Shown: piece after piece, positions 19,011 to 25,566 of the stretch | Layout: each line of letters starts with the position of its first letter | Position numbering within the stretch: position 1 is the first letter of the stretch | DNA from: Aulosira sp. ZfuVER01 | GTDB taxonomy: Bacteria > Cyanobacteriota > Cyanobacteriia > Cyanobacteriales > Nostocaceae | Reading direction: 5' to 3' | DNA length: 64,000 nt | NCBI GenBank assembly: GCA_034530615.2 | Contig: JAVRCV020000037.1 | Coordinates: 1 to 64,000 of the forward strand | Program-made: the position numbers and the translations under genes | Notes under the pieces: generated by a model | Seen by the model: the letters and a program-made list of their open reading frames with translations, nothing else | Told to the model about the DNA's origin: nothing | Databases searched by the model: none

Positions 19011-20690
19011 TTAGTTGCCAGATTGTACCTTACTTACTTTATCGGCTGCGATCGCATACCAAATCTGACCGTAAGTTTGTTGATTCAGTTTCCCACGTGG
19101 CTGACCGGGAAACAAGCGATCGAATTGTTCGTATGTATCTTTTGTTAACTGATTTATCGTATATTTACCAAACTGTCCATCTCGTGCTTGTCGCCTCCAG
19201 GTATCGTAATCTCTCTGACTGTAGCTTCCTAGTTTACGACGAGCTGCTGAACTAAGATTAGCTTGTTCCAGTTTTTGCAACAGGTTTTCGGCAATACCAT
19301 ACCATTCCTCCCGTAATCCTGCATCTTCGGCTTTAGAAGTAAGGCTGCGTCCCTGCAATTCTGGCTTTTGTGTATAAAACAAATTATCTACCATCCGAAT
19401 GAAAAATCCCTCGGGAATTTCCAATTGTTGGCGGCGACTCAAAATTTGGCTGATGCGACTCGTTCCTTTATCGCTAACTGGTTTACCTGTAGGAATCGAT
19501 ATTGATGGGATTTTTGGTAGAGAAATTGTTGATACGCTGCGAATAATGCCATTCACCACCGCGAAGCTACCTGCGCCAACTAAAATTACCACCGCCGTTC
19601 CCCCCAGGCTGACAGCAAAAGGACGCATCCAAGCAGGAAGAGGGATTTTGTTAGCTATTAATTGCGTCTTGCTGTGGATTTTACTAATAATTTGATGAGT
19701 TTGTTTGCGTCCTGGGGCAACCACCATCGTCTTGATTTTGGTAATGTAGGGATTTGGTGGTTTAGTAGCAACTTGTGATGGTAGCTCTTTCAAGACTTGA
19801 TTAGCACTTTGGTAGCGAGCATTAGGTTGATAAGCCAACATCTTTTTTAAGACTGCTTCAAGTTTGGTACTGACTTTGATTTCTTTTCCCCAAAGCCAAA
19901 TTCCTTGGTAACTGTCATAAAGCATTTGTGGTTCCTTACCAGTTAGCAGCACTAAAGCTGTCACCGCTAAAGAATATAAATCGCTACTAAAAAAAACCTT
20001 ACCTTGTCGTAGTTGCTCTTCTGGCGCATAGCCTTTTTTCCCTAACAAAGTATGATTTACAGCCAACTGGGTAAACCAAAAACCTTGAGAAGCTGGTAAT
20101 TGCTTTACACCACCAAAGTCAATCAATACTGGTAGATTATCAGAACGCCGCCAAATCAAATTCTCTGGAGAGATATCGCGGTGAACTACATCTTTGGAAT
20201 GGAGGTAGGAAAGTACAGGTAAGATTTTTTCTAATAATCGGATTACCTCTTCTTCACTAAAAGTCTGCCCTTGACTTTGACGCTGTTCTAACAACTGACG
20301 ATAATTATCACCATCTATATAGTCTTGTACTAAAAAGAAAAAATCTCTACCCCCTAACTTCTCTTGTAGCGAGGCGTGAAATCGGGGGATTTGGGGATGC
20401 TGGAGTTTTTTGAGAACATTTGCTTCTCGTTCAAATAACTCTTTAGCTTTTTGTAAATCCTTCGGTTCTTCGACTTGCGGTGCAAATTCCTTCAGTACGC
20501 ATTGTTGGCTGGATTGGTTTTTATCCTCTGCCAAATAAGTACGACCAAAACCACCCTGACCTAATTGCCGTATAATTCGGTAGCGTTTATCCACCAGCTG
20601 CCCTACAGAAAGAGGCAAAGGTTCACCGCAGTGAGTGCAAAAACGGTTACTGCCATTATTTACGTGTTGTTTAGTGCAATAGACTTGCAT
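19011..20690 (-). CDS. receptor-type Ser/Thr kinase, paralogue of the downstream kinase
   Basis: CTKQHVN..FCTHCGE, GQGGFGRTY, HRDISPEN, DFG, TM helix, extracellular domain similar to 16740..18896. Confidence 0.93.
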   Translation of the reverse strand: MQVYCTKQHVNNGSNRFCTHCGEPLPLSVGQLVDKRYRIIRQLGQGGFGRTYLAEDKNQSSQQCVLKEFAPQVEEPKDLQKAKELFEREANVLKKLQHPQIPRFHASLQEKLGGRDFFFLVQDYIDGDNYRQLLEQRQSQGQTFSEEEVIRLLEKILPVLSYLHSKDVVHRDISPENLIWRRSDNLPVLIDFGGVKQLPASQGFWFTQLAVNHTLLGKKGYAPEEQLRQGKVFFSSDLYSLAVTALVLLTGKEPQMLYDSYQGIWLWGKEIKVSTKLEAVLKKMLAYQPNARYQSANQVLKELPSQVATKPPNPYITKIKTMVVAPGRKQTHQIISKIHSKTQLIANKIPLPAWMRPFAVSLGGTAVVILVGAGSFAVVNGIIRSVSTISLPKIPSISIPTGKPVSDKGTSRISQILSRRQQLEIPEGFFIRMVDNLFYTQKPELQGRSLTSKAEDAGLREEWYGIAENLLQKLEQANLSSAARRKLGSYSQRDYDTWRRQARDGQFGKYTINQLTKDTYEQFDRLFPGQPRGKLNQQTYGQIWYAIAADKVSKVQSGN

Positions 20691-21103: not shown

Positions 21104-21436
21104 ATGCAATTAGAAGATTATTTTGACTTTATATCTCCTGATGATATTCGCATCAAAGGACACCGCATCGGCATTGACAATGTACTTGATTATTATTTAG
21201 AAGGATATTCCCCAGAAGAGATTGTTGCAAATCTACCCACTCTGACTTTAGAGCAAATTCACGCTACTATTACTTTCTACCTCCATAATCGCACTCAAAT
21301 CGACGCTTATTTGTTACGTCTAGCATCATGGCGTGAGCAGCGTTATCAAGAATCTGTTGCTAACCCTTCACCGTTAGTGCAACGTCTTAGAACATTAAAA
21401 TCTCACAAAACTGAACAGCAGGTAAGCGCTTTGTAA
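21104..21436 (+). CDS. DUF433 antitoxin-like protein
   Basis: DIRIKGHRIGIDNVL..Y.EGYSPEEI...LPTLTLEQIHATITFY is typical of DUF433. Confidence 0.88.
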   Translation: MQLEDYFDFISPDDIRIKGHRIGIDNVLDYYLEGYSPEEIVANLPTLTLEQIHATITFYLHNRTQIDAYLLRLASWREQRYQESVANPSPLVQRLRTLKSHKTEQQVSAL

Positions 21437-21792
21437 AGGTTCGTTTTTTGCTCGATGAAAATTTGTCACCCCGTCTGAAAGTAGCTGTTCTCCGTCTTAA
21501 CCCTGCTATAGATATTGTGCGTGTAGGTGAGAGTAATGCACCAGAACTGGGAACTTTAGACCCCGATGTGTTACGTTATCTGGAGTTATCTCAAAGGCTG
21601 TTGGTAACAGATAATCGCACTAGTATGCCAGCACATCTAGAAGCACATTGGGCAGAAGATAGACATATTTGGGGATTATTTTGGGTGCGTCCGAGAATAC
21701 CAATAGGTCAGCTTGCACAAGAACTTTTGCTAGTTTGGGAAACTACTGATGCACAAGAATGGATAGATCAGCTTGAATGGATTCCATTTTAA
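21433..21792 (+). CDS. DUF5615 PIN-like toxin; the expected start position reads GTA
   Basis: (V)KVRFLLDENLSP...D..VL......RLLVTDN PIN-like motif directly after DUF433; the ORF track start at TTG 21448 cuts into the first beta strand. Confidence 0.8.
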   Translation, partial: VKVRFLLDENLSPRLKVAVLRLNPAIDIVRVGESNAPELGTLDPDVLRYLELSQRLLVTDNRTSMPAHLEAHWAEDRHIWGLFWVRPRIPIGQLAQELLLVWETTDAQEWIDQLEWIPF

Positions 21793-21859: not shown

Positions 21860-22069
21860 GAACAGGAAACTTCGAGCTAAAAACAGCAACGTTCTCGTTT
21901 GGAACATGAAACTTTGAGTTCAGAACAGGAAACTTCGAGCTAAAAACAGCAACGTTCTCGTTTGGAACATAAAACTTTGAGTTCAGAACACGGAACTTCG
22001 AGCTAAAAACAGCAACGTTCTCGTTTGGAACATGAAACTTCGAGTTCAGAACACGAAACTTGGAGATAA
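21860..22069. repeat. tandem array of 21-bp units with a 63-bp higher-order period (~3.3 copies)
   Basis: gaacaggaaacttcgagctaa-aaacagcaacgttctcgtttg-gaacatgaaactttgagttca starting at 21860, 21923, 21986, partial at 22049. Confidence 0.92.
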
Positions 22070-22101
22070 AAGCTTGATTTATCAGGCTGAAAACTTGAAT
22101 T

Positions 22102-24504
22102 TTACGGTTCTGAGGAAAGGCGATCGCGCAGATTTGCTAAATTTTCACAACACTTGACAGTGCGGGAATGATTTATCCCTAATCGTTGCTCAAAAATCTC
22201 TAAAGCTTGCATATACAAGGGTTCAGCTTCGTTGTATCTCCCTTGGTCACGGTAGAGTGTCGCTAGGTTCTGGAGACTTTGTGCAACATCTGGATGTTCT
22301 TCTCCCAGCAGCTTGCGCCTGAGTGCCAAAGCTTGGATGTAAAAGGGTTCGGCTTCGCTGTATCTGCCTTGGGAGTTGTAGAGATTCGCTAGGTTGTTGA
22401 GGCTTTGTGCGAGATCTGGATGTTCTTCTCCCAGCAGCTTGCGTCTGAGTGCCAAAGCTTGGATGTAAAGGGGTTCAGCTTCGCTGTATCTGCCTTGGGA
22501 GTCACAAAGTCCCGCTAGGTTATTGAGGCTGAGTGCGACATCTGGATGTTCTTCTCCTAGCAGCTTGCGCCTGAGTGCCAAAGCTTGAATGAAAAGGGAT
22601 TCGGCTTCGCTGTATCTGCCTTGGGAGTTGTAGAGATTCGCTAGGTTGTTGAGGCTTTGTGCGAGATCTGGATGTTCTTCTCCCAGCAGCTTGCGTCTGA
22701 GTGCCAAAGCTTGGATGTAAAGGGGTTCAGCTTCGCTGTATCTGCCTTGGGAGTCATAGAGTCCCGCTAGGTTATTGAGGCTGAGTGCGACATCTGGATG
22801 TTCTTCTTCCAGCAGTTTACGTCTAAGTGCCAAAGCTTGGATGAACAAGGGTTCGGCTTCGCTGTATCTGCCTTGGGAGTCGTAGAGTCCCGCTAAGTTA
22901 TTGAGGATGAGTGCGAGATATGGATGTTCTTCTCCCACCAGTTTACGTGTGAGTGCCAAAGCTTGGACGTACAGGGGCTCGGCTTCGCTGTATCTGCCTT
23001 GGGAGTGATTGACTAAAGCTAGGTTATTGAGGATGAGTGCGACATCTGGATGTTCTTCTCCCAACAGCTTGCGGTAGAGTGCCAAAGCTTGGATGTACAG
23101 GGGTTCGGCTTCGCTGTATCTGCCTTGGGAGTTGTAGAGATTCGCTAGGTTGTTGAGGCTTCGGGCAACAGAGGGATGTTCCTCTCCCAAGCGTTTTTTG
23201 GTGACTTGTAGACACTGCTCACGCCAAGGTTTTGCTTGGTCGTATAATCCCTGATCTTCGTAAAATTGAGCGTTGCCGATGAATGGCGAAATTAAATTTT
23301 CATCGCCGACGTACTGAATGAGATTCTTTGCTACTTCAGCTATGTGAGGTATGGCGGGAGTCACATCGTTGATTTGCTGAAGGGTGGACGATTCAGGAAT
23401 ATCTTTAGCAACTGCTACCATTACCCCGCAAAGCGATCGCTTAAATTCCTCTGCTTTATCTAAACCTGTCAGCTTATATTGAAAAAACTCTCGCAGCAGG
23501 GGATGTAGTTGATAGATTCCCTCACCTTTGCGCTGAAGTAAATGCAAATTCAACAACTTATCATCCCTAATTTCTTCTAAATCTTCCCCATCTTCCTCTG
23601 GTAAACACTGTTCTACGAACACCCAAGGTATAGGTGCGGCGGCGAATAAACTCAATAAGCAGCCCAGTTGCTTATCATCCTCCTCTAATTCTTGCCAACT
23701 CAACTCAAAAGCTGCTAACACACCCCGTTGTGCTGTCATGTCAGCTTCTGGTTTATTAAGCGCGGGTTGTTCTAGTCGCTTTTTCTCCAACCGTCGCTGC
23801 ATTTCTGCAAATGATAAATCTGGTTTCCGCGCCAGATACCGCCCCACCAACTCCAAACCCAAAGGCAAATAACCCAGCCACTCACATAACTGTAATACTA
23901 CCTGGGGGTTGCGCTGATTTTCCTGTTCAAATCTTTCTACCCCAATAATTGACTCTAATAATTTCAGCGCCGCCTCTGGTTGCAGTACATCTAAGGATAA
24001 TGTTGCTATCCGTCCCAAGTGCTGGCGGGTGGTAATCAGTATTTTAAACCGAGAAGATAGCGACGATAGGTAAGGTTTGACTTCCTGGTGATCGGTAACA
24101 TCATCCAACACCAGCAGCACCTCACCCTCACGCCAACGCCGCCAGCAAAATTGAACTTGTGCGGGTAAATCAAAATCTTGTGGCGGGTTTAAATCTAGCT
24201 GCGTCCTTGCAAACTGGACAATTTGCACCCCAATATCACCAGATTTGGGCAACAACCAGCAAATTCCACCTTGATAATTGTCTCGGTACTCAATGGCATA
24301 TTGCAACACCAGTTCTGTTTTCCCAACTCCACCCATCCCCGCAATAGCTGCAATGGCTACTTGTTGATTTTGCTGCAACATTTGCTGGAGTGTTTGCAAT
24401 TCTTCGCCACGTCCAACAAATTCCACTACCCCACTCAGGGGCAAATTTTGCGGTATTTCACTCTGGGGATGAGACTTTACCTGTTCCCGTTCAGGCGGCT
24501 GTAG
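22102..24504 (-). CDS. NB-ARC + TPR (42-aa repeats) NLR-like protein; no ATG start, frame open up to the in-frame TGA of the upstream gene
   Basis: IPQNLPLSGVVEFVGR, Walker A GMGGVGKT, Walker B LLVLDDV, GYLPLGLEL, LHPLL; repeats GEEHPDVA.SLNNLA.LY.SQGRYSEAEPLY.QALAL.RKLL. Confidence 0.9.
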   Translation of the reverse strand, partial: LQPPEREQVKSHPQSEIPQNLPLSGVVEFVGRGEELQTLQQMLQQNQQVAIAAIAGMGGVGKTELVLQYAIEYRDNYQGGICWLLPKSGDIGVQIVQFARTQLDLNPPQDFDLPAQVQFCWRRWREGEVLLVLDDVTDHQEVKPYLSSLSSRFKILITTRQHLGRIATLSLDVLQPEAALKLLESIIGVERFEQENQRNPQVVLQLCEWLGYLPLGLELVGRYLARKPDLSFAEMQRRLEKKRLEQPALNKPEADMTAQRGVLAAFELSWQELEEDDKQLGCLLSLFAAAPIPWVFVEQCLPEEDGEDLEEIRDDKLLNLHLLQRKGEGIYQLHPLLREFFQYKLTGLDKAEEFKRSLCGVMVAVAKDIPESSTLQQINDVTPAIPHIAEVAKNLIQYVGDENLISPFIGNAQFYEDQGLYDQAKPWREQCLQVTKKRLGEEHPSVARSLNNLANLYNSQGRYSEAEPLYIQALALYRKLLGEEHPDVALILNNLALVNHSQGRYSEAEPLYVQALALTRKLVGEEHPYLALILNNLAGLYDSQGRYSEAEPLFIQALALRRKLLEEEHPDVALSLNNLAGLYDSQGRYSEAEPLYIQALALRRKLLGEEHPDLAQSLNNLANLYNSQGRYSEAESLFIQALALRRKLLGEEHPDVALSLNNLAGLCDSQGRYSEAEPLYIQALALRRKLLGEEHPDLAQSLNNLANLYNSQGRYSEAEPFYIQALALRRKLLGEEHPDVAQSLQNLATLYRDQGRYNEAEPLYMQALEIFEQRLGINHSRTVKCCENLANLRDRLSSEP
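22230..23190 (-). repeat. near-identical 126-bp TPR-coding repeats
   Basis: gcttcgctgtatctgccttgggagt recurs every 126 bp; an alternating two-repeat (252 bp) unit is duplicated almost exactly. Confidence 0.9.
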
Positions 24505-24879
24505 TCAGAAGTTAAAAGTATTGCCAGAAATAGTATTAGTTCCGCCTTTAATGTTGATTCCTTTATAATTTTCAATAGTTTGGCTCAATTGCGGTTGTGC
24601 TTCCTTTGCTAAGGCTGCAACAGCTTCAGCTATTTCATCATCTTTCTTTGCAGCTTCCTCTACTTGCTGCCCAATGAGATAAGCTTGACCGTAATCTAAA
24701 GGTTGTGTTTGAGCCAGTTCGATAGTTTCCGCTGTGGTAGGTTGTTTGCGCTTCAGTAGTGATAATAAATTACCACCTTGCTCTAATGCCTTCTCGCCCA
24801 GAATTTCACCAGTCTTTTCAAAAGCTTTTGTAATAACTAAGGTAGCAATCGCGGCTGCTGTCAGGGTTACAGGCTCCAT
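24505..24879 (-). CDS. Bell-like small helical protein with C-terminal amyloid-like motif
   Basis: Hydrophobic N-terminal helix MEPVTLTAAAIATLVITKAFEKTGE, helical body, C-terminus ENYKGINIKGGTNTISGNTFNF; directly upstream of an NB-ARC-TPR. Confidence 0.75.
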   Translation of the reverse strand: MEPVTLTAAAIATLVITKAFEKTGEILGEKALEQGGNLLSLLKRKQPTTAETIELAQTQPLDYGQAYLIGQQVEEAAKKDDEIAEAVAALAKEAQPQLSQTIENYKGINIKGGTNTISGNTFNF

Positions 24880-25069
24880 ATAAAAGTCATGACTTACGAG
24901 ATTACGTTGTGCGATATTTTACTCTAGCTAAACTCATGCGGGAAGAAGTAATACATATCTATTAAGATTTATTTGACAAGGCTGGTGCGATCGCCTTTGT
25001 CTCTTGGGTAAAATCTCACAAATACATTTGCTAAAGCCATACTATATCTATTAACGCTAAAGTCATAGT

Positions 25070-25297
25070 ATGACTACCAACATCACAACCCCAATGCAAG
25101 CTGATAAATACCCTTTTGCTCAAGAACTGATTACTGATATGGAAGGTAATATCCGCAAAGTAGTTATAGATTTTCATGACTATCTACGTTTGCTAGAAGC
25201 TATTGAGGATGAAGGACTTATCTTAGCCATGAAGACAGTAGAACATGAAATACCTCTAAATATTGATAAAGCATTAGCACAACTAGAACAAGAGTGA
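25070..25297 (+). CDS. putative antitoxin of a RelE-type TA pair
   Basis: 75-aa acidic protein (VVIDFHDYLRLLEAIEDEGL) with a GTGA overlap into the toxin. Confidence 0.78.
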   Translation: MTTNITTPMQADKYPFAQELITDMEGNIRKVVIDFHDYLRLLEAIEDEGLILAMKTVEHEIPLNIDKALAQLEQE

Positions 25298-25566
25298 TTA
25301 CCCAATATTTACCCAGCTTTATCAAGGATCTCAAGGCTCTTAAAAGTACACCTTATTATGAGACTATTAAAGCTTTGGCTTTTGAAGAAATACCACAAAT
25401 CCTCACCTTTGAAGAAATTACGAACATCAAAAAACTTCAGGGTTATGAAAATGCTTATCGCATCCGCGTCGGTGATTACCGTATAGGACTGATTTTTGAT
25501 GGAGAAACAATCCTATTTCAGCGAGTATTACACCGGAAAGATATTTATCGTTATTTCCCCAAATAA
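25294..25566 (+). CDS. RelE/StbE-family toxin
   Basis: F.KDLKAL...KKLQGYENAYRIRVGDYRIG...RVLHRKDIY. Confidence 0.92.
   Translation: MITQYLPSFIKDLKALKSTPYYETIKALAFEEIPQILTFEEITNIKKLQGYENAYRIRVGDYRIGLIFDGETILFQRVLHRKDIYRYFPK

Follow-up and report, generated by a model that had tools for sequence, protein, structure and literature searches.

In a 64,000-nucleotide window from the cyanobacterium Aulosira sp. ZfuVER01 (positions 1 to 64,000 of contig JAVRCV020000037.1), an open reading frame (ORF) for a small Bell-like effector ends in TGA, and the same frame then runs on into an NB-ARC-TPR (NLR-like) gene. We found that more than 100 distinct loci share this layout of effector ORF, TGA and in-frame body. 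The comparisons described below make it highly probable that the joint is a site of programmed UGA read-through, which would yield a free Bell-like effector with an amyloid-type tail and, more rarely, an effector-tail-NLR fusion. The passage of ribosomes through the UGA, its rate, the inserted residue and the downstream signalling are what we infer from these comparisons. A first-pass annotation of this DNA had already proposed read-through. That interpretation is supported here: close homologues carry no sense codon at the stop, the two frames keep their register, and the first start-type codon after the stop is not conserved. Two findings go beyond it, namely a covarying pseudoknot 8 nucleotides (nt) after the stop and the reuse of the joint with other heads and bodies.

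The in-frame TGA across cyanobacteria

The effector ORF has 124 codons (24508..24879, minus strand) and is predicted to encode a helical bundle with a hydrophobic N-terminal helix. It opens at ATG 24879 and ends ...GINIKGGTNTISGNTFNF-TGA, with the stop at 24507-24505 (24505..24507, minus strand). Past this TGA the same frame reads CTA CAG CCG CCT... (LQPPEREQVKSHPQSEIPQNLPLSGVVEFVGR) and is free of stops for 800 more codons to 22102; together the ORF pair makes up 925 codons with a single internal TGA. The downstream frame (22102..24504, minus strand, 800 codons plus the stop at 22104-22102) lies on the same strand as the effector ORF at zero intergenic distance. Pfam places an NB-ARC domain at about 24402-23770 and a TPR array at about 23169-22150 (NB-ARC, 1.2e-14; TPR_12, 7e-145; also TPR_10), and NCBIfam adds a match to FxSxx_TPR (1.2e-91). 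These coordinates confirm the 124-residue ORF, its TGA and the same-frame NB-ARC-TPR as they were first annotated. At the junction, a promoter and terminator scan of 21900-25200 showed neither a promoter-like site on the minus strand nor anything resembling a terminator, and the counts were below shuffle means.

The 124-residue protein was searched in 41 related genomes and was present in 22, some rows being two pieces of one locus. Orthologues in four species of the same genus, at 92-93% amino acid identity, all end in TGA CTA (4/4), and all four continue in frame into an intact NLR, for 437-967 codons after the stop. A family search covered 201 genomes, with residues 1-260 of the read-through translation as the query and X at the stop. 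TGA was present in 51/51 listed matches to the whole query, 50 of which have only that stop, at identities down to 41%; 191 further matches lie beyond those listed. Nine listed matches start inside the region of the effector's C-terminal motif and run stop-free into NB-ARC. The one of these that was examined (genome G023; L028, protein P0115) proved to be a canonical NLR, which has an ATG and a motif copy of its own.

We then classified 47 Bell-like loci, leaving L085, L086 and the locus at G023:1603941 unclassified. TGA-CTR followed by a long in-frame ORF (at least 138 codons) was found in 27/47, TGA-CTA with a decayed or out-of-frame partner in 3/47 (L009, L070, L079), a fusion with TCA replacing the stop in 1/47, and other stops or contexts in 16/47. 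Among these 16, two have a long in-frame continuation, L021 and L077 (ATG two codons after TAA). Thus, the interrupted layout is the commonest in the classified sample.

One genome per prokaryote species was also scanned for any of TGA, TGG, TAA and TAG directly before CTR and the linker codons. The pattern matched 84 stretches, of which 80 were fetched. TGA was found in 78/80, all of them in cyanobacteria or metagenome-assembled genomes (MAGs) with the same ORF layout, and the downstream frame is open for at least 99 codons in 78/78. The single TGG and the single TAG match have no ORFs and were rejected as chance. Three leftover loci of the scan also have TGA, as do 11/11 loci from a metagenome scan in which the pattern left the preceding codon free. 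The carriers belong to the Nostocales genera Nostoc, Anabaena, Calothrix, Nodularia, Scytonema, Brasilonema, Komarekiella, Tolypothrix and others, and further to Coleofasciculus, Allocoleopsis, Aerosakkonema, an Oculatellaceae MAG and Pseudanabaena. Strains among them are Tolypothrix tenuis PCC 7101, Nostoc carneum NIES-2107, Calothrix sp. NIES-4101 and Nostoc sp. NIES-4103.

Across the loci the ORFs are always in frame despite codon insertions and deletions in the tails and linkers, and divergent homologues keep the TGA, its context and the stop-free linker. The codon after the stop is CTA in 62/76 and CTG in 14/76 scored junctions; the codon before it varies (TTC/TTT 48, AAC/AAT 9, GAT 8 and ATT 5 of 76). 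Loci found by protein search have TGA-CTR in 29/30 cases, and the exception (L051, TGA CAG) bears a second stop too. Ordinary genes of the Aulosira genome avoid the TGA-C context (64/3349 stops). Of its 3349 long ORFs, 680 end in TGA; C is the least frequent +4 base after these TGA stops (64/680), and TGA-CTA follows only six and TGA-CTG only five of the 3349. Neither another TGA-CTR locus in frame nor another linker-like peptide was found in this genome. Some other genomes have tandem copies, in which two or even three complete loci joined by TGA lie about 5 kb or less apart (G176:C14:2402540-2408347; G193:C3:970558-976999), and one cassette-bearing locus (L120) lies on the 37-kb plasmid pHT582-1 of Nostocales cyanobacterium HT-58-2.

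These results bear on the possibility that an all-in-one NLR has been interrupted by a recent nonsense mutation, by decay into a pseudogene or by a sequencing error. A single stop in an otherwise continuous frame is what this would look like, and a few relatives (L009, L070, L051) are clearly decayed. However, the TGA recurs in different species, genera and orders, and purifying selection acts on the sequences flanking it; an accident of this kind is hardly credible as the origin of the joint.

Constraint and RNA structure after the stop

In pairwise comparisons among five species, the ratio of nonsynonymous to synonymous rates (dN/dS) was 0.09-0.30 for the effector ORF and 0.22-0.35 for the NB-ARC part over 355 codons, indicating that both parts are maintained as proteins by purifying selection. 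The TGA is followed by a 20-codon linker without a canonical start codon (LQPPEREQVKSHPQSEIPQN; 24445..24504, minus strand). Over these codons dS in the five orthologues was 0.00-0.12, against 0.16-0.54 in the flanks, and dN was as high as in the flanks. Suppressed dS with no reduction of dN suggests that the constraint is on the nucleotides and not on the peptide. In the 76 scored junctions, two linker codons are GAA in 76/76, one is GTA in 76/76 and one is AAG in 74/76, and the third base of linker codons 3, 6 and 8 is almost always G; invariant positions were counted only where the scan pattern had left them free.

We found that the linker RNA can form a small H-type pseudoknot (24466..24496, minus strand, about 31 nt). 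With the T of TGA numbered 1, stem S1 pairs 12-16 with 25-29, and stem S2 joins 39-42 to 20-23 within the loop of S1. The window has GCCUG (24496-24492) and CAGGU (24483-24479) as the arms of S1, and GGGA (24488-24485) and UCCC (24469-24466) as those of S2, all on the minus strand. The structure therefore begins at +12, after an 8-nt spacer (CUACAGCC; 24497..24504, minus strand) that opens with the conserved CUA (CTR) codon and so creates the UGA-C context.

Covariation was assessed in 49 distinct junctions from the protein search, a set free of selection by DNA pattern. Over S1 and S2, 95.4% of cells were paired compared with 88.7 +- 0.6 in shuffles, and double-sided changes occurred in 6/9 pairs compared with 2.6 +- 1.0; neither value was reached in any of 500 shuffles. 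When the 3' partners were slid by 1-3 columns, only 22-58% were paired. The S1 pair 15-26 is CG in 22, UA in 16 and UG in 8 junctions, the S1 pair 13-28 is CG in 38 and UA in 9, a further S1 pair is GU in 39 and GC in 9, and an S2 pair is GC in 36, GU in 6 and AU in 5. Full 5 + 4 pairing was found in 41/49 and 52/62 junctions, with a register of +-1 allowed for the 3' arm of S2. RNAalifold recovered S1 independently, and it also proposed an outer helix of GACU, including the GA of the stop, with AGUY, for which there were one-sided changes only and no double changes. The many G-U pairs fit the structure to sense-strand RNA only, which points to a function in RNA. An Rfam search of 24200-24700 at E<=10 returned four chance rows, none at the junction.

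The same joint links other proteins. Upstream, the heads comprise at least seven tail types on Bell-like domains and, in Allocoleopsis and Coleofasciculus, a 276-residue alpha/beta-hydrolase (PGAP1/DUF676-like) without an amyloid-like tail. Downstream, the bodies are NB-ARC-TPR, NACHT, NB-ARC-APAF1_C, a PsbP-like membrane protein (212-219 residues) and a GUN4/Ig-like protein. The hydrolase ORF has a GHSMGG motif and is joined by a TGA-CTG-pseudoknot cassette to a NACHT ORF (L183:2440-3267, TGA 3268, Allocoleopsis MAG; L182:2923-3537, TGA 3538, Coleofasciculus MAG). The PsbP-like body, which is not an NTPase, has a membrane helix and a match to PF18933 (4.4e-8), and it stands in frame behind Bell-like ORFs (L061:1009-1644, minus strand; L062:739-1395, plus strand; L013). 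Judged by these sequences, the element is a portable joint. We think it likely that UGA-CUR, the 8-nt spacer and the H-type pseudoknot constitute a portable cis-acting recoding cassette of cyanobacteria, which would fix the ratio of free effector to tethered receptor from one mRNA. The conserved joint may also be a point of head and body shuffling.

This last point raises the question of whether the conserved 40 nt are mainly a DNA-level recombination joint that swaps heads and NTPase bodies, like the junctions of polymorphic toxin cassettes, with the TGA carried along. The variety of heads and bodies just described would be expected of such a site, and gene conversion would also give low dS. 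Nevertheless, compensatory changes that keep Watson-Crick and G-U pairing are not required of a recombination site, and G-U pairs work on one strand only. The invariable TGA (never TAA, TAG or a sense codon) and the kept frame would also be left unexplained. Recombination is therefore an improbable main role for the joint, although it can coexist there with read-through.

The effector tail and the start of the NLR frame

The C-terminal tail of the effector (ENYKGINIKGGTNTISGNTFNF, residues 103-124; 24508..24573, minus strand) is of an amyloid type resembling BASS motifs. In an AlphaFold2 model of the 124-residue protein, helices span residues 6-102 and the tail (100-124) is disordered, with a mean pLDDT of 65.7. 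The ORF matched no Pfam family and no NCBIfam family. A Foldseek search of the model against the PDB gave no match at E<=0.001, and its weak rows (rhodopsins, Rx-CC, Mcl-1) were not used. The protein shares 38.6% identity (E 4.5e-17) with the product of a Bell-like gene on contig C52 of the same genome, where that gene belongs to a canonical motif-paired locus. Our Bell label rests on this homology to a canonical-pair effector, as distinct from a comparison with a protein that its authors named Bell.

In the two-gene version on C52 (G000:C52:128912-129355; L002, L030), the Bell-like ORF ends ...ENWQGINIKGGENSISNPTFNFGSK-TGA CCA, and the NB-ARC-TPR ORF follows in another frame and begins with the same motif (...NENWQGINIKGGETNINNPIINFGS), without linker or pseudoknot. 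Residues 97-124 of our effector match the N-terminus of this C52 NLR (53% identity, E 2.8e-5), which indicates that both partners of canonical pairs use motifs of the family to which the tail belongs. The tail also resembles the N-terminus of the NLR protein P0115 (MSENWHGINIKGGKNEIKGNTFIF). In composition it is rich in G/N/T/I, which agrees with the description of BASS motifs, and it may form amyloid and cross-seed. The motif string GINIKGG did not occur in the literature searched.

After the TGA, the frame goes through the linker straight to IPQNLP-FVGR, and there is no second copy of the motif at the NLR N-terminus, where canonical paralogous NLRs do carry one. The paralogous NLRs that have their own ATG and their own motif copy do not have the LxSPExERVK linker. 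Because the paralogues without the stop are also without the linker, the linker goes with the stop and not with NLR function.

We next considered where an NLR translated on its own could begin. The first ATG/GTG/TTG 3' of the TGA is TTG 24444 (24442..24444, minus strand), which codes for the L of PQNLP; the first-pass annotation had noted that it splits this motif, and had named an independent NLR start there as an outcome that would refute read-through. The equivalent codon in 74 loci is TTA in 33, TTG in 31, CTG in 2, CTC in 2, CTT in 2, ATT in 2, TTC in 1 and GTA in 1. It is TTA in the orthologue of G011; in that of G009, the CTG found two codons further on is replaced by CTT. By this behaviour TTG 24444 looks like an ordinary, drifting Leu codon and not a conserved start. 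Among 113 distinct junction loci, codon 5 is the nearest and codon 115 the farthest position of the first in-frame ATG/GTG/TTG past the stop; this start-type codon comes after FVGR in 24/93 loci and after the P-loop in 4/105. The GTN codon of the conserved Val was ruled out as a GTG start (GTA in 76/76), and no sequence resembling a Shine-Dalgarno site was found at a fixed distance from any candidate NLR start.

These observations bear most directly on the view that the two genes are translated separately, the NLR starting at a TTG, GTG or CTG near codon 21-26 or by termination-reinitiation after the UGA, with the RNA structure serving coupling or mRNA stability. A start-type codon stands before FVGR in 69/93 NB-ARC-type loci, and gene callers annotate the NLRs as proteins of their own (500-1100 residues). 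In addition, coupling or overlap between the Bell gene and the NLR gene is frequent in canonical pairs, according to the parts of the Dyrka preprint covered here (10.1101/2020.01.06.895854). On the other hand, the candidate start drifts as described, the first start-type codon comes only after FVGR in 24/93 loci and after the P-loop in 4/105, and separate translation needs neither a shared frame nor 20-115 stop-free codons, both of which hold in 78/78 loci. Furthermore, a separately started NLR would be without the tail that canonical NLR partners carry. We consider separate translation unlikely.

Possible decoding of the UGA and known recoding systems

A fused copy in G005 (L029; G005:C94, minus strand, near STLNFSKEP) has TCA for TGA and a Bell-NACHT frame of 823 codons, and the pairing is lost. 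This copy is without a Bell start ATG and may be decaying. A search for fused forms among 5.8 billion proteins found three that fully cover the junction (P0001, P0002, P0003), all with W at the stop position. Only P0002, from an NCBI annotation with table 11, is safely TGG, and W at this position was therefore downgraded as strong evidence for insertion of Trp. P0002 itself (Nostoc sp. CALU 1950, partial, 897 residues) has FFGH in place of FVGR and an upstream TPR array that is in frame into Bell.

A UGA in frame, followed after about 10 nt by a conserved hairpin, resembles a bacterial selenocysteine insertion sequence (SECIS), the only structured signal for UGA recoding that is known from within bacterial coding sequences. 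As in bacterial selenocysteine insertion, the signal lies just 3' of the UGA. Unlike there, it is a pseudoknot and not a SelB-binding hairpin, and the sense-codon homologues carry W or S, not C. SelA and SelB had no match in the genome (99.99% complete), no tRNA-Sec scored above the gathering score, and ARAGORN found no tRNA with a UCA anticodon among 74 tRNAs. Selenocysteine at this UGA can be all but dismissed. ARAGORN did report two unusual tRNAs that both begin with TGCAG, a second tRNA-Trp(CCA) of atypical form and an odd one whose anticodon loop is irregular, at c[181152,181224] of a contig of G000 and c[55056,55127] on another contig. The canonical tRNA-Trp of this genome has a U11-A24 pair, the one that the Hirsh mutation introduces in the E. 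coli UGA suppressor, and this pair might raise UGA reading here.

The bypass in phage T4 gene 60 also has a stop followed by a compact structure, and ribosomes here might hop over the structured region, or shift frame, instead of decoding the UGA. The downstream ORF is in frame 0, and frame +1 meets a conserved TAA within 10 codons, inside the element (determined by hand from the consensus); frameshifting would thus be neither needed nor productive. For bypass, the codon before the stop varies and no matching landing codon was found. Either event is very unlikely to explain the joint.

Read-through as we envisage it would proceed as follows. A single mRNA would carry the Bell-like effector with its amyloid-type tail, the UGA and the NB-ARC-TPR frame. 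Most ribosomes would stop at the UGA and release the free 124-residue effector, and a minority would decode it by a near-cognate tRNA and stay in frame to make a fusion of about 925 residues. The tRNA would most likely be tRNA-Trp, a choice suggested by general knowledge of UGA misreading and by P0002. Read-through would be favoured by the weak UGA-C(UA) context and by the small H-type pseudoknot, whose S1 at +12 would be at the mRNA entry of the ribosome. The fusion would be the sole form of this NLR bearing the tail. Once the TPR sensor was triggered, NB-ARC would oligomerise and the clustered tails could nucleate an amyloid fold, which would template the abundant free effector and lead to permeabilisation of the membrane; this step is modelled on HET-S/NWD2 and the bacterial Bell/BASS pairs. 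Read-through might additionally report the state of the translation apparatus during infection.

Several points weigh against this interpretation. The counts come from homologous loci and hence are not independent events, and the shuffle tests overstate support where sequences are related. The pseudoknot is small, at 5 + 4 base pairs, and S2 is backed by fewer double changes than S1, with the +-1 register allowed for its 3' arm. The start-type codons before FVGR in 69/93 loci might allow independent initiation at individual loci. P0001 and P0003 have a single automatic source, in which a TGA may have been translated as W, and L126, which is close to P0003 around the junction, has TGA. A metatranscriptome run gave a single 157-nt contig of a relative, about 92% alike, that spans 24646-24801 and stops short of the junction. 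Finally, the hydrolase head without an amyloid tail and the PsbP-like body are not explained by amyloid templating. Since the joint links these other heads and bodies, the amyloid-ratio argument may cover no more than a part of its role. The first-pass annotation had reasoned that one locus could give both partners an identical motif and set their ratio; this fits most loci, but not those with hydrolase heads or PsbP-like bodies.

Pseudoknot-stimulated stop-codon read-through is textbook knowledge for retroviruses. The closest parallel is gammaretrovirus gag-pol, as in Moloney murine leukaemia virus (MoMLV), where a UAG, an 8-nt spacer and an H-type pseudoknot likewise place an in-frame stop between a short abundant product and a long rare fusion. 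The MoMLV pseudoknot also begins at +12, according to the part of the source covered here (PMC13517186), and synonymous sites are suppressed 3' of the stop in both. The viral case differs in being eukaryotic, in using a UAG decoded as Gln and in having a pseudoknot of about 50 nt. Ours is in a bacterial chromosomal or plasmid gene, uses UGA, and has a predicted pseudoknot of about 31 nt with 5 + 4 base pairs. The UGA CUA context had been put forward earlier as a known viral read-through context, and the same material bears this out for Sindbis virus, O'nyong-nyong virus (ONNV) and Plautia stali intestine virus (PSIV) (PMC13517186), in which it is identical to ours. Unlike here, the alphavirus structures are long stem-loops acting on eukaryotic ribosomes. 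For bacteria, the covered part of that source gives UGA read-through of 3-5% in Q-beta and 1-6% in B. subtilis cat-86 (PMC13517186). The Q-beta coat/A1 pair is similar to the proposed system in that bacterial ribosomes read a UGA at 3-5% for a needed minor fusion, but its context is UGA ACU, and no downstream structure was seen for Q-beta in the material covered.

In its proteins, the locus resembles the Bell/BASS-NLR pairs, as described in the part of the preprint covered (10.1101/2020.01.06.895854), and HET-S/NWD2, with a small helical effector, a G/N/T/I-rich C-terminal motif of about 22 residues and a collinear NB-ARC-TPR gene. Canonical pairs with the same motif family on both partners occur in this genome (C52) and in G023. 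Unlike the NLRs of canonical pairs, which have their own start and motif copy, the NLR frame here has neither and would gain the motif only by reading through the effector stop. The predicted read-through product also resembles all-in-one NLRs, with effector, nucleotide-binding oligomerisation domain and repeats in one polypeptide; unlike in those, a conserved TGA interrupts the frame, so that free effector would be made too. The BASS motif-pair screen requires the motif at the annotated NLR N-terminus, as stated in the part of the preprint covered (10.1101/2020.01.06.895854), and TGA-joined loci would therefore escape it.

No description of a TGA-joined effector-NLR read-through was found in the literature searched, as judged from titles, abstract starts and selected papers. 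The terms readthrough, read-through and stop codon had 0 occurrences in the BASS preprints and the eLife conflict-system papers, a count over the papers themselves. As far as these searches reach, pseudoknot-stimulated read-through has not been described for bacterial cellular genes. If our reading is true, the joint would be the first structured non-selenocysteine stop-codon read-through signal in such genes, and in loci with amyloid-tailed heads, nucleator and substrate would share an identical motif. It would explain why most Bell-like genes in Nostocaceae are followed by NLRs with no apparent partner motif, and would add a third architecture between the gene pair and the all-in-one NLR. 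Being compact, at about 45 nt, and having over 100 variants in nature, compensatory mutants among them, the element would also open bacterial read-through to direct testing. Genome annotation at present begins these NLRs at arbitrary internal start codons.

The TPR array (22150-23169, minus strand) consists of near-identical 42-residue repeats whose copy number varies widely between species (orthologues L023-L026), which is typical of a fast-changing sensor. The surroundings of the locus resemble an island of defence or toxin-antitoxin genes. On the plus strand at 25070-25566, divergent from the effector gene, a RelB-like antitoxin (8.7e-21) is paired with a ParE toxin (2.7e-7). Just beyond the NLR stop lie a DUF433 protein and an adjoining family-less ORF of 114 residues (21104-21792, plus strand), and next after these comes a Ser/Thr protein kinase of 559 residues (19011-20690, minus strand).

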